DNA of 21,819 nucleotides from Candidatus Parvarchaeum sp. (lineage in GTDB: Archaea > Nanobdellota > Nanobdellia > Parvarchaeales > Parvarchaeaceae). The stretch covers positions 1 to 21,819 of the forward strand of contig JBMFWF010000009.1 of the NCBI GenBank assembly GCA_049965555.1. The letters are read 5' to 3'. Within the stretch, counting starts at the first letter, position 1; each line of letters begins with the position of its first letter. The notes under the pieces are model-generated. The model searched no databases. It was not told where the DNA came from and saw only the letters and a list, made by a program, of their open reading frames with translations. Below are positions 2,198 to 16,826 of this stretch, piece by piece. The position numbers were made by a program, and so were the translations under genes.

Positions 2198-3287
2198 AAA
2201 TTTGGTTCTTAAAAGATTGATTACTAGATAATTTGCTTTTAATGAAATCCATAAACTGCTTTAAGTTATTTACTCTATTTTCTCCAGATGCCTTTATGAC
2301 CCTGTTCCTTACAGCAAGATCGAATGACTTGAGTTTTATGTCCGATATTAAACCAATCTCTACATCTATTTCATCGAGTTTTCTAAATGAACTAAAAAGG
2401 TTCCTGGCAATCTCTTCTGGCTCATATATGCTTCCTAAGATTATTTTTCTATTAGAATTTACCCTTGCTTTGTATTCCTCTGGTATCAAAACGGCAAACT
2501 TCAAGCCTTTTGATTCAAGGAACCTGCTTGCAGAGATCAGTCCATCCACGTTATCAAATAAAAACAGCGGTTTTCTAGGCGAATAATGCCGATACTTCAT
2601 GCCCGGCGACAGGACTTTTCCCTTTTTTACAGTTTCATTTATGCTTTTTGGGATTTTTATCTTTCCTAAAAACTTTTCCAGTTTATTCACATCATAAGAA
2701 CCAGGTCTAAGCAGCCTGTAAGGCTTTCTACTTACATCTACAACTGTAGATTCCAATCCGAATTTTGACTTGCCTCCGTCAATTATAACTGCAACTTTCC
2801 CTAAGAAATCTGCAACTGCATGCTTAGCTTCAGTTGCGCTCGGTAAAGTAGAGATATTTGCACTGGGTGCAGCTATAGGAACATCGCTTTCCTTTATTAA
2901 TTCCAAGGCAATCTTATTGCTTGGCATTCTTACAGCTACAGTATCCAATCCAGCCGTAACCATCTTCGGCAGGTTAATGCTCTTAAATATAAAAGTCACC
3001 GGGCCGGGCCATACCTTCCTTAAAACTACAAACAGATTAGCCGGAACAGCCGCTATTTCTTTAAGTTGATCCAAACTATATATATGTACAATTAAGGGAT
3101 TATCAACTGCCCTGTTCTTTACTTTAAAAATCTCTTTGCATGCTTTTTCATTGAAAGCACTGGCTCCTATTCCATAAACTGTCTCTGTTGGAAACACCAC
3201 TAGCTTTCCGCCTTTAATTTGATTTGCAGCGTATATTATCCCTTTCCTATCAATTTTACTTTCAGACATTTTAATTATCTTTGTCAT
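2190..3287 (-). CDS. sua5: L-threonylcarbamoyladenylate synthase Sua5 (t6A tRNA modification; YrdC + SUA5 domains)
   Basis: FPTETVYGIGA, K-x-R..DNPLIVH, WPGPVT, VAVRMP, PIAAPSANIS, ESTVVD, LLRPG, linker SPGMKYRHYSP and C-terminal ARNLFSSFRKLD...AVRNRVIKAS. Confidence 0.97.
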   Translation of the reverse strand: MTKIIKMSESKIDRKGIIYAANQIKGGKLVVFPTETVYGIGASAFNEKACKEIFKVKNRAVDNPLIVHIYSLDQLKEIAAVPANLFVVLRKVWPGPVTFIFKSINLPKMVTAGLDTVAVRMPSNKIALELIKESDVPIAAPSANISTLPSATEAKHAVADFLGKVAVIIDGGKSKFGLESTVVDVSRKPYRLLRPGSYDVNKLEKFLGKIKIPKSINETVKKGKVLSPGMKYRHYSPRKPLFLFDNVDGLISASRFLESKGLKFAVLIPEEYKARVNSNRKIILGSIYEPEEIARNLFSSFRKLDEIDVEIGLISDIKLKSFDLAVRNRVIKASGENRVNNLKQFMDFIKSKLSSNQSFKNQIFN

Positions 3288-4453
3288 ACATTAATTTTCC
3301 ACCTTCTAAAATTAATATTATTCAATAAAAGCAAAACAATTATGAGCAAGATTATAAAAACAAATGTAATCTTGAAACCTACCTTGTCTATTGAAAAGCC
3401 AGACAATGTTGGAAGAACCACTCCGACCGCCATCATTATTGCAAAGAAGTAGCTATTTGCAGCGTTTCTAAATCTTGCCTTGAATGACCTGCCAAGCGTG
3501 ATTATTGAAATAGGATATGCAAGTCCATGCGGTATCCCTAAAATAAGAAATGAAACTAGGAATATTTCTAGATTCCTTGAAAAAACCATTACTATTATGC
3601 CTATAAGCGTCAAAATGATCGTTTCATTCATCATAAGTTTTATGTTGCGAGGGGGCTTAACCGATAGATATATTCTAGATAAAAAGGAAGTAAGGAAAAA
3701 CAGGGAAAACACCAATGTAACAAATGAAAAAGATACATTGAAGGCGTCTTTCTCATATATTCCTGCGAATGCTATCAATACTGCAAAAGGTATGTTATAC
3801 GCCATTATATTGAAAACCGCCGAACGAAAGCCGTAATTTGAAAACACTTTGACCTTAACCCTTTTCTGCTTTTCAGCCGGAAACTTCATCAAAGGAGAAA
3901 GAACAAAAGAGATTAGGCCGAATAATGCAAATATAAGGAATGCTTCCCTTATATCTACAAATTTAAGTAGCTCCGACTCTATTAATGGCCCTATTATAAG
4001 GCTAAAACTTAACACTACTGTGTAAATTGACAGTACTCTGTCCCTAATTTTTGGATCCTTAAAAAGCCCGGCTGCAGTTATTATGTTAGGCATTATAAAG
4101 CCCAGAAGAACACCCATTACTGCTGCTAATACCCAGATGCTGTAAAAATTGGAAACCCATATACTGATGAATACGAGCATGTAAATGAAATTAGAAACTA
4201 TAAAAGCTATGCGCCTTTTGCTTGCCGATAACTTGGTATTTAAAAATGCAGTCGTAAGAAAAGTGGTAAAAGACAACAAAGCTGCTATTAATCCGACTTC
4301 TGTTTCAGAGAAACCAAAGTAGTACTTAACCAGCAATGGAACAGAAGTGGTGAGCATGTTGTTGCTTGCCCGTATTGAAAAGGTAATTATCATTATAATT
4401 AAGACTATGCTAACAAATGATACACCAGAATCCTTGACCTTGTTTTTTATCAT
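3284..4453 (-). CDS. Major facilitator superfamily transporter
   Basis: 389 aa with about 12 hydrophobic segments in a 6+6 layout, a hydrophilic central loop (PAEKQKRVKVK) and G-x-x-x-DKVG near the C-terminus. Its stop overlaps the sua5 start (ATGA at 3284-3287). Confidence 0.88.
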   Translation of the reverse strand: MIKNKVKDSGVSFVSIVLIIMIITFSIRASNNMLTTSVPLLVKYYFGFSETEVGLIAALLSFTTFLTTAFLNTKLSASKRRIAFIVSNFIYMLVFISIWVSNFYSIWVLAAVMGVLLGFIMPNIITAAGLFKDPKIRDRVLSIYTVVLSFSLIIGPLIESELLKFVDIREAFLIFALFGLISFVLSPLMKFPAEKQKRVKVKVFSNYGFRSAVFNIMAYNIPFAVLIAFAGIYEKDAFNVSFSFVTLVFSLFFLTSFLSRIYLSVKPPRNIKLMMNETIILTLIGIIVMVFSRNLEIFLVSFLILGIPHGLAYPISIITLGRSFKARFRNAANSYFFAIMMAVGVVLPTLSGFSIDKVGFKITFVFIILLIIVLLLLNNINFRRWKINV

Positions 4454-4459
4454 GAAACT

Positions 4460-4678
4460 CTACTTGTACTTTATTTTCATTATTTTAAACAGCCCCTTCC
4501 AGCGGTATAAAACAAGCCAACCAACTGCTAGATATGCTATCCCTATAAAGCTTGCGCCGTTTGGGCCGAAATACTTGGTTAAAAAAACAAGTATTAAGAC
4601 AAAACCGACCAAAAAATAGAGTATGACCACAGAAAAGAATATTTTCTTCTTTTTGCTGCTCAAGGCTTCAATTATCAT
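4460..4678 (-). CDS. Small two-TM membrane protein, first gene of the MFS-sua5 operon
   Basis: 72 aa, two hydrophobic helices flanked by Lys-rich ends (positive-inside rule). Ends 6 nt before the MFS start. Confidence 0.65.
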   Translation of the reverse strand: MIIEALSSKKKKIFFSVVILYFLVGFVLILVFLTKYFGPNGASFIGIAYLAVGWLVLYRWKGLFKIMKIKYK

Positions 4679-4722
4679 TAATGATTAATAATCTAATCAG
4701 TTATATCATTTTAATGACCATG

Positions 4723-4736
4723 GAAAGCTATTTATA
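4723..4736 (+). promoter_or_regulatory. BRE/TATA promoter of the EhpF-like gene, within an 81-bp divergent promoter region
   Basis: GAAAGC-TATTTATA ends 23 nt before the ATG at 4760, consistent with a leaderless transcript. Confidence 0.65.
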
Positions 4737-4759
4737 TCACAACTAATCACTATTATAAA

Positions 4760-5899
4760 ATGAATAATTATATAAAAAATCTAAGGAAATATACAAGGAG
4801 AGAAGGCTTCTTTCAAGGAGAGTGGCAGGGTTTTAAAAAGCCATTCGAAGAAGCGCTTTCAAGTAAAAACGGCGAAGATGGGATGCTTCTTTGGCTTAAA
4901 GCAATAGCAAAATATCACATAAATGAAGAAACGGGTTCAAGATATTGGATAGAAAGAGCAAAATCCAATGATATAACAAATGAAAAGATAGACAAAGCTG
5001 AAAGTTTAGACTCGCTTGTTTCTCTGCTTGGAAATTCGGATTCTAGTCTCTTAAAAAAAGAGAATGGCTACAGAGATTATTACATGCCAAAGAATTTCAA
5101 GCTGGAAGACATGTTCAAAAGTTCCTCTTCTGGAACTACAGGGCCGGCAAAGACGGTTTACCATACCCCCCAGTCATTGTCGGTTTCTGCAGTAAATGAA
5201 TACACTGGGATAAAGGCACAGTATCCCGTAGAGAGATTAAAAAACAAGAAATTATTGGCCGCAGGCCCAGTAGGTGCTTATCAAGAGGAACACAAAAAAC
5301 TTGCGGAGCTTCTTGGAATGGAATATGTGGGAAATGGGTTCGAAACAAGGGGATTAAAGCTCTTAAGCCCGCAGCAGATGATGCAGGCGATGAAACCCGT
5401 AATGGAAAAGGAAGCCTACTTATTAAAGCAAGGCAACGTTGGAATAGCTACAGCCGCAATGGAAATGCTTTCAATGTTACCTAAAGACCTGTTTTACGAT
5501 ACTGATTTAATAAAGGTGTCGGGTACACAGATAACTTCGGAAGGATTAAAAAAAGCAGAGAAAGAAATCGGCAAAAAGCTTATACCTATGTATGGCCACT
5601 ATGCAGGAAAATCCTCAATAGGATTCGCAGACGGGATTAGAACAGTTCATATAGGCGACAATAGAATCTATTTCAGCAGCGATATAGTCTATTTTCCATC
5701 ATTTCCACTTACATGCCTTTATATGAACAATGATGGAAATCCTATAGCATACGATCAAAAAGCACAGACAAAGATGATAGTTGCTGAGCCTGAATTACTG
5801 CTGATAAATGATGAGGATTACGCCGTCAAAAGAAAGGCAACAGGAGTAACAAAAGCCTTCAAGAAAATAGACGGTATTTCCGACATCTCTAGATCCTAA
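4760..5899 (+). CDS. EhpF-like adenylate-forming (ANL superfamily) protein lacking the C-terminal subdomain
   Basis: P-loop SSSGTTGPAK. Colinear matches to Pantoea EhpF as recalled from memory: YHINEETGSRYW (WHFSKETGSPFW), LLAAGPVG (LAAIPTG), FETRGLK (IDPRWVK), SGTQI (GGTEL), YG, YFPSFP, DEDYAVKR (ERDTAIR) and DGISDI. Ends where EhpF ends. Confidence 0.78.
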   Translation: MNNYIKNLRKYTRREGFFQGEWQGFKKPFEEALSSKNGEDGMLLWLKAIAKYHINEETGSRYWIERAKSNDITNEKIDKAESLDSLVSLLGNSDSSLLKKENGYRDYYMPKNFKLEDMFKSSSSGTTGPAKTVYHTPQSLSVSAVNEYTGIKAQYPVERLKNKKLLAAGPVGAYQEEHKKLAELLGMEYVGNGFETRGLKLLSPQQMMQAMKPVMEKEAYLLKQGNVGIATAAMEMLSMLPKDLFYDTDLIKVSGTQITSEGLKKAEKEIGKKLIPMYGHYAGKSSIGFADGIRTVHIGDNRIYFSSDIVYFPSFPLTCLYMNNDGNPIAYDQKAQTKMIVAEPELLLINDEDYAVKRKATGVTKAFKKIDGISDISRS

Positions 5900-5900
5900 T

Positions 5901-7256
5901 CTAATAGTGTTCTATTCCTCTTTTATCCATAATCTTAGGGCTCTTTAGTTTCTTAAGATCGTAGAAAGGAATTTTGTCTTTATCGACTAATTCTGCATCA
6001 AGCAAAGCTAATTTTTTGTCCAGTACATACTTTATTTCCATCTCCTCTTTGGATAATTTATCTAAAATTAAATTAATCAATTCCTCTTTGCTCCCATTAA
6101 ATTCATTTTTATAGAAGTAAAAAGTAATTTTATCCAGACCGCTTTCTCTTGTTATTTCGGCGTATCCCTCACCTAAATTTAGTTTTCTTGAAGTGAAAGC
6201 AAGCACGTCATCTATTATAATATCATCTAATTTTGATACGCTAAAGTTAACAAGCTTATTTGTCCTTCCAAGAAATTCTAAGTACATATAATCTTTGTCT
6301 ATACCAATAAACCTAACTTTTTCCTTTGTGTTGTAATTTATTAACGGCATGTGGTCATAGCCTTTCAATCCTTTGCTTGTCAATAGCAATTCGCCTTCAA
6401 GGCCTTTAAGTTTATTATTAGAAGGGTAATAAACCTTACCATCGGAATAAACCCCAAACTCATTGTTATACCTAGAGACTTTGAATATAAATATGTCAGT
6501 GGTATCTTTATTCTTTAAAGTTTCCTCCGTATAAAATTTGCTGCCACAAACTCTTTCAGTCGAAGCGATTAAATTTATTATGCCCTTTACAGGCATAAAT
6601 GAATAAAGTAACCTGCTTCGCTCTAAATTTAGCGGTTCTCCTCCTAACGCGATGTAAACTTCATTTTTGCTTATTAGACTAGCCAATTCTTTCCTAGCCT
6701 CCTTATCTAAATTATATACCTCCCTAAAAAGCAGAGATGGTAAACTAGTTATAAGTATCTTTTTATTCATTTCTTTGTGCGAATTAATTATATTATCGCA
6801 TTTCTTGAGTATTTCCAACATGCCTTGACCTGGTCCAGGATTTAGTTCTATTGAATTCCCTAATTCAGATATAGAAGACATCCCAATCCCGCTTATTGCG
6901 GGTCTTGGTGGCGCAACATTTACAGTTAAATAAGGCATTTCTCCAATCAGATCTTCATACATATTCACAAAAGATTGGCCAAGGAGCCGAATATCTTTAT
7001 AACTTGTAGGTATAACTTTAGGCCTACCAGTTGAACCGGAAGTTTGAAACAATGAAATATTAGTTCTTATATCTGGTATAAATTTATAAAAATCGTCAAG
7101 AAAACTCTCTCCCGATATTACCGGAACATTTTTAAGAGTATCTTCTAAATTTTTATGGCCAAACTTTTTTAAAGCACTATAGGAACTTGATTTATAAAAG
7201 TCGATATTCTTTAATGCGTATTCAAAAACTGGTTTAACTTCAGGCTTTGATTTCAT
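5901..7256 (-). CDS. Phenylacetate-CoA ligase / coenzyme F390 synthetase-like adenylate-forming enzyme (divergent)
   Basis: YA..NIDFYK start, P-loop TSGSTGRPK, GGEP, ASTE, GELLLTS, MPLINYNTKE (for PLIRYRTGD), hinge FLGR and C-terminal K..PKIMDKR. Confidence 0.85.
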   Translation of the reverse strand: MKSKPEVKPVFEYALKNIDFYKSSSYSALKKFGHKNLEDTLKNVPVISGESFLDDFYKFIPDIRTNISLFQTSGSTGRPKVIPTSYKDIRLLGQSFVNMYEDLIGEMPYLTVNVAPPRPAISGIGMSSISELGNSIELNPGPGQGMLEILKKCDNIINSHKEMNKKILITSLPSLLFREVYNLDKEARKELASLISKNEVYIALGGEPLNLERSRLLYSFMPVKGIINLIASTERVCGSKFYTEETLKNKDTTDIFIFKVSRYNNEFGVYSDGKVYYPSNNKLKGLEGELLLTSKGLKGYDHMPLINYNTKEKVRFIGIDKDYMYLEFLGRTNKLVNFSVSKLDDIIIDDVLAFTSRKLNLGEGYAEITRESGLDKITFYFYKNEFNGSKEELINLILDKLSKEEMEIKYVLDKKLALLDAELVDKDKIPFYDLKKLKSPKIMDKRGIEHY

Positions 7257-7780
7257 GGTATCACCTCCAGTAAAAATTTACATTCTGTGTCTCCTTTTGC
7301 TTTACAGTATATTTCTTTTGTTGAATATTTTTTATCCAGTAAACCTGTAAACAATGCATTTAAGCCACCTGCTAAAAAGAAGCAAATAGGTTTTTCTGTT
7401 TTACCAAAAATCTCAGCATATGTCTCTGCAAAGGGAGAAGGATTAGTCGAAATCAAAATTTTATCTTTATCAAAATTAAATATCATCTTTCCAAGACCAG
7501 ATGTCGCAACTACATTTGATATTAAATCAATAATTTTATTTATGTTATTATTAAACCTATTCTTATAATCCTCTACTAAGCCAGCTATACTAATTGAACC
7601 GGCGTTGTATACTTCAGTTTCATCATATTTTATAAGCTTTCCAATTAAAGAAACAAATATGCTCATATTTATAAGTACACCTGGCCTATTCATAAGTAGC
7701 AACCTATTGTTCTCAAACTTTATGTTTTTAGTTAAAAGCATCTCATTTAAGAAGTTATTAGGACTAACCTCATTTGACAT
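7253..7780 (-). CDS. V4R (4-vinyl reductase) small-molecule-binding domain protein with XylR_N-like N-terminus
   Basis: SGLGK, SPFAE, PICFFLAGGLNALF and EIYCKAKGDTECKF give the V4R C...E-x-x-C-x-x-x-G-x-x-x-C-x-F signature. Confidence 0.9.
   Translation of the reverse strand: MSNEVSPNNFLNEMLLTKNIKFENNRLLLMNRPGVLINMSIFVSLIGKLIKYDETEVYNAGSISIAGLVEDYKNRFNNNINKIIDLISNVVATSGLGKMIFNFDKDKILISTNPSPFAETYAEIFGKTEKPICFFLAGGLNALFTGLLDKKYSTKEIYCKAKGDTECKFLLEVIP
7261..7268 (-). promoter_or_regulatory. Shine-Dalgarno site for the PaaK-like gene
   Basis: GGAGGTGA 4 nt upstream of the ATG at 7256, inside the V4R 3' end, with an ATGA start/stop overlap. Confidence 0.8.
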
Positions 7781-8435
7781 ATATGCCGCCTTTGTCTATC
7801 CTCATAGGAAGCATTGACCTGTCATTGTTTGTTCTTCTCATCTTAACTATCTGCATGCTCCTATCAAAATCGCCACCTAATCCTGTATAGAAAAGCTTTA
7901 TGACTGCGTCTGAAAGGTATTCGCCACTGAAATAAAGCGTGTCACTATCGGAAACCTGCGGCTGTTCATCGGTAACTATCGCAGTTACCTTGAACTTTTT
8001 AAGTTCGGTAACAAGATCAAGCATAAATTTCCTGAATTTGCCTCTATCTTCCATGTACATGGATATAGCTGACAAAGAATCGATCACTACCCTGGAAACT
8101 TTATTTTCCTGGATTATATCAAGTATCCCCAGATATTCAAAATTTATCGGTGAATTAAATGAAAGCAGCAGCTTTTTGTTAGAAACGAAATTCCTTACGT
8201 CATTTAAACCTATTGCCTCCATATCAAGTATTAAATCATCGACGTTTTCTTCAAATGACATCAGAAGGCATGTTTCTCCCCTTTTCAAGCCCTCATATAA
8301 AAACGACATTCCAAGCAGCGACTTCCCAGATCCGGGACCACCCAACAGGCTTATTACAGAACCGGCTTCAAATCCGCCCTCTATCTTTTCATCGAGGCCG
8401 TGTACACCGGTGGGTATCCTTTTTATTTCTGCCAT
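7770..8435 (-). CDS. Single-domain KaiC-like / RAD55-family RecA-superfamily ATPase
   Basis: RIPTGVHGLD..IEGGF, Walker A GGPGSGKS, catalytic SFEE, Walker B RVVIDS, EYLSDAVIKL and arginine-finger region IVKMR. Overlaps the V4R start by 11 nt. Confidence 0.93.
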   Translation of the reverse strand: MAEIKRIPTGVHGLDEKIEGGFEAGSVISLLGGPGSGKSLLGMSFLYEGLKRGETCLLMSFEENVDDLILDMEAIGLNDVRNFVSNKKLLLSFNSPINFEYLGILDIIQENKVSRVVIDSLSAISMYMEDRGKFRKFMLDLVTELKKFKVTAIVTDEQPQVSDSDTLYFSGEYLSDAVIKLFYTGLGGDFDRSMQIVKMRRTNNDRSMLPMRIDKGGIYVK

Positions 8436-8469
8436 AGTAATTACTATGTAATAATATAGAAAACTGTAT

Positions 8470-8483
8470 TTAATAAACTTTTG
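8470..8483 (-). promoter_or_regulatory. BRE/TATA promoter of the kaiC-V4R-ligase operon
   Basis: Minus strand CAAAAG-TTTATTAA, 34 nt upstream of the ATG at 8435. Confidence 0.55.
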
Positions 8484-8495
8484 TATTTTTATATT

Positions 8496-9419
8496 TTAAG
8501 AGAAATCAACCATCTTTCTTTGTTGTTTTTCTTCTTTTTCTCTATCCGGTAGATTTTTTACATTGCTCTTCTCAAATAGATCTTTTATCCCTTCTAATCC
8601 TACAGGCGTAGGTATACTGAATCCTTTGCTATCCGTTGGTATAAATATCATTAGATTTTTACCGCTTAGGCTTATTTCATACATCATGTTAAGTGACCTA
8701 AGCTGCATTGCAAACAAGTCTTTCTTATACTTAGAGCTTGCCTCTATAATTTTATCGGCAGCAAGGGATTCGCTCTCTGCTAATTTTACTCTCGCCTGTT
8801 TTTCTCTGTCAGCTACTGCCACCCTAGCCATTGCATCCTTCAAGTCAGGGATATGCTTACATCTCATATTTCAACAGAAATTGCCTCTATTCCCCAGTCT
8901 GCTACTCTGTCTTGAATCAGATTTTTTACATCTTTCCCGATTACGTCCCTGCCGGCAAGCATCTCTGACAATTCAGTCTTGCCTATAATGTCTCTTAAAG
9001 CAGTCTGTGCTGCCAATTGGACAGAATCCCTATATATTTGAACATTCAAAACGGCATTCTCTGAGTTTATAACCTTCCAGAAAAGAAGTGCATCTACATC
9101 AACTGGAACATTATCTTTTGTAAGCGTCTTCTCCGCCTTGAAAATAGTATTTATTACACGCAAATCCAAAGTTATTGGAGTAGTCTGTACAAAAGGTATT
9201 AGTATGCTCCATTATACCGACATATTTTCCAAAAGAAAGGGCTGCTTTTCTGTTCCATTGATTAACTATCCTAATAGCAGCAACTAAAAATACAATGAAA
9301 AGAAATACTGCAACCACTATCTCCACATATAAATTTGCAATTGAAAACAGGTAACCTACAACTGCAGGAATAATAATTACAAATAGTATGCCCAAAGCAT
9401 CGCCATTAAAATTTTTCAT
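8496..9419 (-). pseudogene. SPFH/band-7 (stomatin/slipin) family pseudogene in three fragments
   Basis: Continuous stomatin motifs across three ORFs: IRIVNQW.R.....GKY, LDLRV, LTKDNVPVDVDA, AQTALRDIIG, WGIEAISVEI, DAMARVAVADREKQAR and AMQLR. Lesions: a frameshifting deletion at about 9206 that removes the PGL motif, an in-frame TGA at 8864-8866 replacing R of EIRDV, and a -1 frameshift at about 8848-8851. Confidence 0.9.
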
Positions 9420-15883: not shown

Positions 15884-16318
15884 ATGATAAAAAGCCAAAG
15901 AATACTGATAGGCTTTGATGGTTCTGAATACTCAAAAAAAGCTGTTGAATATACCATTAATAACTTTGACAAAAAAAGCACAATTTACCTTTTGTATGTA
16001 GAAGAGATGTTTGCTCCTTTGTATCTTTCTAACCCCAGCCTTTTTATAGACGATAGCGTAATTAGAAAAATCAGAGAAAAAACTAGAAATGAACTCAAAC
16101 GCCAAGTAGAAATAATAAAAAAGAAAGGGTTTAAGGCAGAATATGAATACGCTGAAGGCTACCCTCCTAATGAAATAATAAATGAAGCAAAACGTAAAAA
16201 TGTTGATATAATAGTAGTCGGAAGCAGAGGCATGGGAAAGTGGAAGGGCTCTGTCATCGGCTCAGTAAGCCAAGCACTGACTGTAATTAGCAAGTTGCCT
16301 TTACTTATAATAAAGTGA
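15884..16318 (+). CDS. Universal stress protein
   Basis: RILIGFDGSEYSKKA start and ATP-binding motif IVVGSRG-x8-GSVS. Confidence 0.95.
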   Translation: MIKSQRILIGFDGSEYSKKAVEYTINNFDKKSTIYLLYVEEMFAPLYLSNPSLFIDDSVIRKIREKTRNELKRQVEIIKKKGFKAEYEYAEGYPPNEIINEAKRKNVDIIVVGSRGMGKWKGSVIGSVSQALTVISKLPLLIIK

Positions 16319-16319
16319 T

Positions 16320-16826
16320 TTAAGGCAGATATTCCCAAAGATAATAATCCTTTTCCCCAATGTATTTTTTTAGCTTTCCGACCTTTCTAAAACCCGCCTT
16401 TTTAAGGAACTTCTTTGATTCTTTGTCTGAAACAAGGGACAGACACTGTATATTGTGTATTTTATGTTTCCTAGCGAAGTCTATAATCTTCTTTAAAATA
16501 GAAAGGCCGATTCCCTGCCGTCTATACTTGTTATCCACAGCTAACAAGTTTACATGAAGAAGCCCGCTTTGGTATAACTCCGATACGCATGCTCCTATTA
16601 TTTTTCCATTGCCGGATTTAGCAGAAAGAATCGGATAGGAATCGGCAGATTTAAAAATAGGGCCATTGTTTTGATATAAGTAAGGATAAGATTCTTGACT
16701 TTTGCTATTCCCAATAGAACTTAATTTAATAAAGTTTCTTAGAAATTTTATGACTTTCCTGCGGTTATTCTGCTCTTTTTCCAAGTTTACTTCAAATTCT
16801 ATTCTTTCCTTAATCTTGAATTCCAT
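16320..16826 (-). CDS. GNAT-family N-acetyltransferase
   Basis: Motif A LAVDNKYRRQGIG and motif B FLKKAGF..VG....Y. Confidence 0.88.
   Translation of the reverse strand: MEFKIKERIEFEVNLEKEQNNRRKVIKFLRNFIKLSSIGNSKSQESYPYLYQNNGPIFKSADSYPILSAKSGNGKIIGACVSELYQSGLLHVNLLAVDNKYRRQGIGLSILKKIIDFARKHKIHNIQCLSLVSDKESKKFLKKAGFRKVGKLKKYIGEKDYYLWEYLP

Follow-up and report, generated by a model that had tools for sequence, protein, structure and literature searches.

A candidate chemical sensing module of Parvarchaeaceae: a V4R protein linked to a KaiC-like ATPase and two adenylate-forming enzymes

What use would a tiny, acid-loving archaeon make of a KaiC-like ATPase, a V4R protein and two adenylate-forming (ANL) enzymes encoded side by side? 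The question is raised by the window, the whole stretch of 21,819 nucleotides (nt) analysed here, which opens a contig of 37.8 kb (JBMFWF010000009.1) and takes up 21.8 kb of it, in the genome of Candidatus Parvarchaeum sp. (assembly GCA_049965555.1). KaiC, V4R and the first ANL gene (ANL1) form an operon, on which the second (ANL2) converges (Table 1). A sequence-only reading of the window had assigned these four identities, including the resemblance of ANL2 to EhpF, and they were borne out by Pfam for KaiC and V4R and by sequence profiles, AlphaFold2 (AF2) models and Foldseek for the two ligases. The tight packing that it described was confirmed from the open reading frames (ORFs) and the sequence, with an 11-nt overlap of the KaiC and V4R genes (7770-7780), an ATGA overlap of the V4R stop and ANL1 start (7253-7256), a Shine-Dalgarno site and stop codons of the convergent ANL1 and ANL2 genes that lie a 1-nt gap (position 5900) apart. 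As it had supposed, the host is an archaeon of reduced genome, a member of the DPANN group with an assembly of 784 kb in 28 contigs that is 92% complete (genome G000), and homologues of the module genes are named Candidatus Parvarchaeota or Parvarchaeum. Nor were paa or phenazine genes, likewise reported as missing, found among the window ORFs scanned. On the comparisons below, the four-gene module may well be a circuit for chemical sensing or signalling that has yet to be described.

The distribution of ANL1 was determined in a sample of 201 genomes from the class, fourteen of which were positive: G000, twelve of the twenty-seven other genomes of the family (Parvarchaeaceae, f1) and one genome elsewhere with a P-loop-only match. 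Positive family genomes occur in the genus of the window (g1; 7/22 other genomes) and in two further genera (g2, 4/4; g3, 1/1). When twelve related Parvarchaeaceae loci were compared by tblastn, KaiC, V4R and ANL1 were adjacent in all twelve, across three genera, so that a lack of conserved linkage, named beforehand as a possible refutation, was not encountered. ANL2 adjoins the module in 11/12 loci, the exception being L025, whose contig stops 83 nt beyond KaiC. It is convergent in seven g1 loci, as in the window, while the g2 (L022-L024) and g3 (L026) loci present the order ANL2-KaiC-V4R-ANL1 on one strand. The SPFH, 72-amino acid (aa) ORF, MFS and Sua5 neighbours of g1 are missing from the g2 and g3 loci, and in L022 and L023 (g2) the module is flanked by glutamine synthetase and sulfatase genes. 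Thus, the conserved unit comprises the four genes without the MFS operon. The divergent orientation of this operon relative to ANL2 in the window stands as previously described, and the MFS operon side is kept beside the module in all seven related g1 loci, but it was rejected as part of the module as it is not conserved outside this genus. The ratio of nonsynonymous to synonymous substitution rates (dN/dS) lies between 0.01 and 0.15 for all four genes within allele types, by which measure all of them are under purifying selection. As adjacency survives a change of gene order across three genera and is accompanied by purifying selection, the linkage is more than chance. The spacing of the module also recurs in one more genome, where KaiC and ANL1 carry the locus tags OH318_00915 and OH318_00925. 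The view that the four-gene combination is undescribed was upheld in so far as no account of it was found in the full-text literature searched, with supplementary neighbourhood tables on KaiC lying outside the scope of the search. One candidate report of V4R with adenylation (PMC13714276) was rejected, since it contains UniProt accessions beginning with V4R and not the domain.

V4R and ANL1 form a discrete cassette that is exchanged by recombination at gene borders, with KaiC and ANL2 as the constant parts. For example, the L021 proteins are 94% (KaiC) and 88% (ANL2) identical to those of the window, while V4R and ANL1 share only 48% and 45% identity, respectively. Conversely, the V4R and ANL1 proteins of L021 are 95-96% identical to those of L020, with 90% identity for KaiC and 75% for ANL2. 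The borders were placed by a 200-nt sliding nucleotide comparison. Between L021 and L001, nucleotide identity is 82-92% in the flanks, up to the KaiC end and again from ANL2 onwards, and 49-66% across V4R and ANL1 (L021 5453-7407), switching at the gene borders. Between L021 and L020 it is the other way round, with 86-96% across this stretch and 60-90% in the flanks common to both loci. The synonymous divergence (dS) between L020 and L021 is low inside the cassette (0.14 and 0.38) and high outside (0.86 and 1.56), which shows that an old allele has been transferred recently. Identities between pairs of loci within the genus correlate for V4R and ANL1 (r = 0.95) and for KaiC and ANL2 (r = 0.90) and less so for the cross pairs (0.27-0.52), values that are descriptive, as related strains are not independent. 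Overall, the thirty-one ANL1 sequences fall into twelve classes at 70% identity, V4R identity across loci ranges from 20 to 84%, and KaiC identity across the three genera from 57 to 94%. Both cassette exchange and co-variation are what a matched pair of binder and enzyme predicts.

The KaiC protein matches PF06745 over residues 7-220 (157.1 bits, cut-off 26.6; E 6e-46), and among the NCBIfam models KaiC_arch_3 is matched at 125.7 bits, under its cut-off. It falls below the equivalogs of circadian KaiC (circ_KaiC, 70.5 bits, cut-off 546; PRK09302, 120 bits, cut-off 408) and consists of a single domain in 221 aa, as opposed to the duplicated CI and CII domains (~500 aa) of the circadian protein. 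In the alignment of thirteen sequences GGPGSGKS, E62-E63, D119 and R200-R201 are unvarying. These we take to include the Walker A motif (GGPGSGKS), the catalytic glutamate pair (E62-E63) and the Walker B aspartate (D119), and as they are invariant in thirteen orthologues an active ATPase can be expected. Among the best 120 of 1638 matches in a profile search, the orthologues cluster tightly (E<1e-74) and the next matches appear only from 1e-55. Named members of the orthologue group belong to Parvarchaeota, Candidatus Rehaiarchaeum and two short contigs (2.9 kb and 3.5 kb) labelled Conexivisphaerales archaeon, presumably a lineage of the Thermoproteota. The latter encode the proteins P0131 and P0132 (57-58% identical) and could be due to mis-binning or gene transfer. 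G000 carries two further strong KaiC paralogues outside the module. Furthermore, five of five congeneric genomes without ANL1 (90-100% complete) lack the orthologous KaiC and contain only paralogues of 28-34% identity, which argues that the module KaiC is dedicated to the module and comes and goes with it. Prediction of a KaiC-V4R complex returned a score of 0.00 against a mark of 0.32, which weighs neither way.

The V4R protein matches PF02830 over residues 125-172 (44.5 bits, cut-off 31; E 1.7e-11) and is similar to the V4R portion of MsvR (E 7.5e-9), with a weak match also to BchJ. Residues C133, E156, C159 and C167 are unvarying across thirteen sequences. In PMC7264223, the zinc ligands of DmpR are given as C151, E172, C177 and C185, located beside the phenol pocket, and the V4R sensor there controls an ATPase. 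The kinds of residue in the Parvarchaeum protein are those of this zinc site and their spacing is similar, though not identical, as judged by sequence comparison only. A second, weaker V4R-like gene occurs in G000 outside the window (contig C3:58744-59418 (+); a 345-aa ORF with two V4R-like stretches), and similar ORFs of 345-373 aa are present in many genomes of the genus.

Neither ligase could be placed readily from its single sequence. ANL1 scores 15.9 bits against Pfam AMP-binding, under the cut-off of 29.9, and its other single-sequence matches are weak, while one homologue bears a precomputed PF00501 label. A profile of seventeen ANL1 sequences matched PaaK (2y4o; E 1e-5) and other ANL enzymes in the PDB. 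The AF2 model (predicted local distance difference test score, pLDDT, 87.3) was matched by Foldseek to the putative acyl-CoA ligase BT_0428 and to PaaK2 (template modelling score, TM, 0.63-0.68; E ~1e-20), followed by the PaaK-family AMP-ligases NatL2, AjiA1 and ClxA and a 2-hydroxyisobutyryl-CoA ligase. A P-loop, TSGSTGRPK, is present at residues 72-80, and S73, G74, G77, K80, E234, R331 and the C-terminal K438 are unvarying in the seventeen sequences. ANL1 thus shares with the PaaK-family AMP-ligases a two-domain ANL fold with P-loop and C-terminal lysine, as determined by Foldseek and alignment with motif definitions that we presume to be the usual ones. It is however no PaaK orthologue, with 14.5 bits against the 700-bit cut-off of the NCBIfam PaaK equivalog, and differs further from that family in having no paa genes among the scanned ORFs.

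The single ANL2 sequence had no match in Pfam, NCBIfam or PDB. Its P-loop reads SSSSGTTGPAK (residues 121-131), and a profile of twelve sequences matched EhpF (3hgu; E 4e-7) over almost its whole length (profile positions 35-325). With the AF2 model (pLDDT 78.7), Foldseek ranks 1-5 were all EhpF chains (TM 0.61-0.69, identity 12-15%). EhpF, an enzyme of the D-alanylgriseoluteic acid phenazine pathway (3hgu/3hgv/3l2k), is thus the best match of ANL2 in both profile and fold, and the two are alike in size (379 aa in ANL2, 369 aa in EhpF), P-loop and the missing C-terminal domain. Unlike that of EhpF, the ANL2 locus is without phenazine genes or an EhpG-type aldehyde dehydrogenase among the ORFs scanned. 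ANL1 and ANL2 belong to a fold class and are not orthologues of PaaK or EhpF. The nearest fold relatives of both are small-molecule enzymes, not protein-modifying ones, and their Atlas neighbours are named phenylacetate-CoA ligase family or arylcarboxylate reductase, names that serve as leads only. The ANL2 family is rare, with 80 representatives at E<=1e-3, and 10 at E<=1e-30, among 1.84 billion proteins, and in a phylum-wide sample of 401 genomes its profile was found in only two, which belong to the Parvarchaeaceae. A metagenome scan with the ANL2 alignment gave 594 pattern matches, none of which was confirmed by tblastn. A close relative does occur in a different phylum: the hypothetical protein WP_153422597 (GFS03_03870), encoded on a 2.55-Mb contig of Sulfolobus sp. 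E5-1-F, is matched by the profile at E 1e-97 and is 35-46% identical to the other aligned ANL2 sequences. No Sulfolobus protein was found among the ANL1-alignment matches or among the best 120 of the 1638 KaiC-alignment matches.

In other families of the Nanoarchaeia, V4R is encountered with only some of these partners. PF02830 was found in 47 of the 201 class genomes, and seventeen V4R loci outside the family were scanned across 1.5-kb flanks with hidden Markov models of the four module alignments. Next to V4R, KaiC was found in four of them, ANL1-like genes in three and ANL2-like genes in two, and the four KaiC loci agree with the earlier statement that KaiC-like genes sit beside V4R genes. 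The nine partner-bearing loci were viewed as longer stretches, L049 already being a complete contig of 2.7 kb. In family f18 (L077, L078, L079), ANL1 comes next after V4R and is abutted by a convergent ANL2, exactly as in the window. These V4R, ANL1 and ANL2 proteins are 25-33% identical to those of the window, and the window genes are their best matches in G000. Family f14 (L080, L081) has V4R followed by an ANL2-like gene only. In 5/5 f14 and f18 loci a winged-helix-like protein of ~100 aa is encoded directly before V4R, its copies in L078 and L080 sharing 36% identity (E 1e-21), and no homologue of it was found in G000. Families f10, f13, f23 and f61 contain V4R-KaiC pairs without ligases. 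In one f61 locus (L084 5010-7520 (+)) KaiC lies between two V4R genes, and the second of these (415 aa) combines XylR_N with V4R, by domain content the full sensor module of XylR/DmpR-type regulators. The module of the Parvarchaeaceae thus looks, from these gene neighbourhoods, like a union of the V4R-ligase and V4R-KaiC associations, and the swap of a DNA-binding-like protein for KaiC as the partner fits a sensor with interchangeable outputs.

Other genes accompany these clusters. A transglutaminase-like gene lies beside the V4R-ligase clusters of L077 and L078 (f18) and of L080 and L081 (f14), and a co-directional cluster in f13 (L082 5271-7179 (-)) consists of V4R, KaiC and a transglutaminase-like gene, the last directly after KaiC. 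This recurrent partner of V4R was not found in G000, at 92% completeness. A RuBisCO large-subunit gene is encoded a few kb from the f14 and f18 clusters (L078 7174-8376 (-); L080 2323-6003 (+)), and the cluster of L080 is also near AMP-phosphorylase-like and IF-2B-family genes. Together these are presumably genes of the archaeal AMP-salvage pathway, and their proximity to AMP-releasing ANL enzymes may be shared synteny only.

The explanation that we favour, tentatively and at somewhat short of an even expectation, is a small-molecule module centred on V4R. A hydrophobic carboxylate, aryl or acyl, would be produced or altered by the two ligases, the V4R protein would bind this compound or a ligase product, and KaiC would serve as the output. 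The intact catalytic motifs of KaiC and ANL1 and the P-loop of ANL2 speak for such a module. In the Parvarchaeaceae, V4R occupancy would be relayed to the dedicated single-domain KaiC-like ATPase, while in f14 and f18 the small winged-helix-like protein would take the place of KaiC as the output. V4R and ANL1 would constitute the specificity-determining pair and KaiC and ANL2 the constant parts. What the sequences show is which genes these are, how the operon is built, that the unit is conserved, that the cassette is exchanged and that V4R has other partners elsewhere. We infer the nature of the ligand, its binding by V4R, the coupling of V4R to KaiC and the downstream effect, and a quorum- or host-sensing role, as proposed earlier, may be hypothesised.

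Several known systems offer parts of such a circuit. According to PMC7264223, an oligomeric ATPase is under the control of the V4R domain in XylR/DmpR/MopR sensors, and the Cys/Glu/Cys/Cys zinc site of this domain adjoins a small hydrophobic pocket. The module likewise combines a V4R protein that has matching kinds of residue with an adjoining, overlapping ATPase gene, but V4R and ATPase are separate proteins, and the ATPase has a RecA/KaiC fold and is not of the AAA+/sigma-54-dependent type. The module furthermore is archaeal, has no DNA-binding domain and is linked to two ligases and not to a catabolic operon. The MsvR redox-sensing regulator of methanogens combines a winged helix with V4R. 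The winged-helix-like and V4R genes of f14 and f18 resemble a split MsvR, while the window lacks the winged-helix-like protein and KaiC holds the neighbouring position. The archaeal KaiC-like ATPases were reportedly described as signalling hubs by Makarova, Galperin and Koonin in mBio in 2017. As quoted in PMC5847659, they have been proposed to be hubs of signal transduction, and the module similarly links a single-domain KaiC homologue to a sensor-type protein.

A number of observations weigh against the V4R-centred sensing module. ANL1 has no clear aspartate in the ribose-contact motif, where it reads NYNTKE and the usual consensus is [STG]GD; its adenylation competence is thus likely, not certain. 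The triad of V4R, ANL1 and ANL2 occurs without KaiC anywhere on the 9.8-kb contig L078 (f18), from which it follows that KaiC is not needed for the V4R-ligase role. The winged-helix character of the f14 and f18 protein is one of sequence appearance, a Pfam search having given no family, and the co-variation of V4R and ANL1 fits a pair of enzyme and accessory subunit equally as well as one of synthase and sensor. In addition, the related loci have in common, next to the module, no gene for a carrier protein, a CoA-dependent follow-up enzyme or an exporter.

Several of these points bear on a metabolic or salvage complex without signalling, in which V4R would be an accessory subunit presenting ANL1 and ANL2 with a hydrophobic acid to activate, such as an aryl, fatty or isoprenoid acid from the host, and KaiC an accessory ATPase such as a scaffold or chaperone. 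We consider this explanation rather unlikely, if deserving of attention. DPANN archaea depend on imported metabolites, and BchJ, another V4R protein, is a proposed substrate carrier. The 784-kb genome of the host and the MFS transporter adjoining the module in the genus of the window are consistent with salvage, as are the triad without KaiC in L078 and the translational coupling (ATGA overlap) and tight co-variation of V4R and ANL1, as would be seen in enzyme subunits. However, no conserved downstream enzyme using acyl-CoA or acyl-AMP is found near the module, the winged-helix-like or KaiC partner looks regulatory, and the module is missing from many congeners, being present in 7/22 others. 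Nor would one expect twelve deeply divergent classes of ANL1, or exchange of the cassette between close relatives, if a common nutrient were being salvaged. The same exchange of V4R and ANL1 as a co-varying pair would fit direct recognition between the two proteins, and hence covalent loading, in which ANL1 would activate an acid as its adenylate and couple it covalently to V4R, for instance at a cysteine, the liganded sensor then acting on KaiC, much as p-coumaroyl ligase (pCL) charges photoactive yellow protein (PYP) or as LuxE-type acyl-protein synthetases act. Precedents described in PMC12826048 are the pyp operons, which commonly hold a chromophore-supplying ligase, and the existence of PYP-V4R fusions. 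V4R has three invariant cysteines, and among the Atlas neighbours of ANL2 one bears the name acyl-protein synthetase LuxE, which is a lead only. These cysteines are probably not free, since the Cys/Glu kinds match those of a structural zinc site; no LuxE or pCL match ranks above PaaK or EhpF in fold or sequence, and a precedent for an acylated V4R was not found in the literature searched, all of which makes covalent loading improbable.

Patchy distribution (12/27 other family genomes; 7/22 other g1 genomes) and deep allelic classes with recombinational exchange are typical of loci under conflict-driven selection, and the variable V4R-ANL1 pair could accordingly be seen as the specificity module of an anti-virus, toxin or self/non-self system. 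A search of PADLOC-DB 2.0 returned no family for ANL1, ANL2 or V4R and for KaiC only a P-loop match to mad8 (E 1.8e-7, residues 16-71). There is no nuclease, protease, pore or other effector within the module, no mobile-element genes flank it, and dN/dS is low within allele types, so that such a system appears most improbable. Least credible of all, to the point of being nearly dismissed, is that the genes have no common function and are neighbours by descent only. Most loci do derive from one family of related genomes, and some of the synteny is inherited. Against this, the genes overlap, the unit survives rearrangement while its other neighbours change and is gained or lost whole, and the V4R-ANL1-ANL2 arrangement recurs in another family at 25-33% protein identity.

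Within the V4R-centred sensing explanation, a more specific form can be envisaged. In the pherotype loci of bacterial quorum sensing (agrBDC of staphylococci, comQXP of Bacillus), a synthase and the binder matched to it co-diverge into deep allelic classes and are swapped as one cassette, while the other parts of the pathway on either side stay conserved. By analogy, the V4R-ANL1 pair follows this pattern, diverging jointly and moving as a unit beside the constant KaiC and ANL2. Its protein families are unrelated to those of the pherotype loci, the ligand would be an acid derivative and not a peptide, and an exporter (MFS) is adjacent in one genus. In an archaeal pherotype, each V4R-ANL1 allele would represent a strain-specific signal-making ligase with its cognate receptor, ANL2 would perform a common precursor step and KaiC would generate the response, by which episymbiotic DPANN cells could distinguish kin, or a particular host, from others. 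We regard this as a speculative and decidedly unlikely possibility.

The features of the locus are collected in Table 1. The string TTTATTAAATA upstream of the operon is plausible as a TATA promoter, though in AT-rich DNA (~33% GC) a TATA-like string is weak promoter evidence. No tRNA was found in a scan of the window, and no sequencing run containing the locus, nor any RNA run, was listed.

Table 1. Features of the four-gene module and its surroundings in the window
Feature	Position	Strand	Remarks
KaiC-like ATPase, single-domain RecA-fold	7770..8435	-	221 aa; opens the operon; constant in the module
V4R protein, stand-alone	7253..7780	-	175 aa; presumed binder of small molecules; variable half of the cassette
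ANL1, two-domain PaaK-fold adenylate-forming enzyme	5901..7256	-	451 aa; other half of the cassette
ANL2, EhpF-like adenylate-forming enzyme, N-terminal domain only	4760..5899	+	379 aa; converges on the operon
V4R+ANL1 allelic cassette	5901..7780	-	replaced as a unit between strains
GGAGGTGA Shine-Dalgarno-like site	7261..7268	-	4 bases 5' of the ANL1 ATG, within the V4R end; read from the sequence
60-nt spacer 5' of the KaiC-V4R-ANL1 operon, presumed promoter	8436..8495	-	TATA-like strings, TTTATTAAATA at 8477-8467
Divergent intergenic spacer between ANL2 and the 72-aa ORF/MFS/Sua5 operon	4679..4759	.	81 nt, AT-rich
Genus-specific neighbours, non-core	3284..4678	-	72-aa hydrophobic ORF 4460-4678; MFS transporter 3284-4453

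The MFS transporter gene is matched by Pfam MFS_1 (E 2e-33). Directly 5' of KaiC, an SPFH/Band 7 (stomatin-like) gene (window 8496-9419 (-)) is represented by three overlapping ORFs of 102, 101 and 123 aa, while in relatives it is a single ORF of 315-321 aa (for example L001 3787-4752; Band_7, E 2e-38), so that the gene has either become a pseudogene through two frame changes or been split by faulty assembly. Approximately 7.5 kb from the module (window 15884-16826), a universal stress protein gene (+) is arranged back to back with a GNAT acetyltransferase gene (-). GNAT genes are also encoded near the f14 and f18 V4R-ligase clusters, a co-occurrence in position only.

The component families and the idea of KaiC as a hub are known, while the four-gene unit, the ancient V4R-ANL1-ANL2 triad, its interchangeable partners and the allelic cassette are new. 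Archaeal KaiC-like ATPases are widespread, yet to our knowledge an input is known for almost none of them. For DPANN archaea, which spend their lives attached to hosts, the means of host sensing are still an open question. The module presents a compact and testable case, with one binder, two enzymes and one ATPase, all of them small soluble proteins that E. coli can produce, and the natural allelic series of matched V4R-ANL1 pairs amounts to a ready-made specificity experiment. The occurrence of V4R with ligases, winged-helix-like, KaiC or transglutaminase-like partners in different families of the Nanoarchaeia suggests a wider V4R-centred system, of which no description was found in the literature searched. 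If the pherotype interpretation were true, DPANN archaea would for the first time have a chemically specified circuit of self- or host-recognition to their name, and no KaiC-like hub ATPase would have had a defined input before this one.

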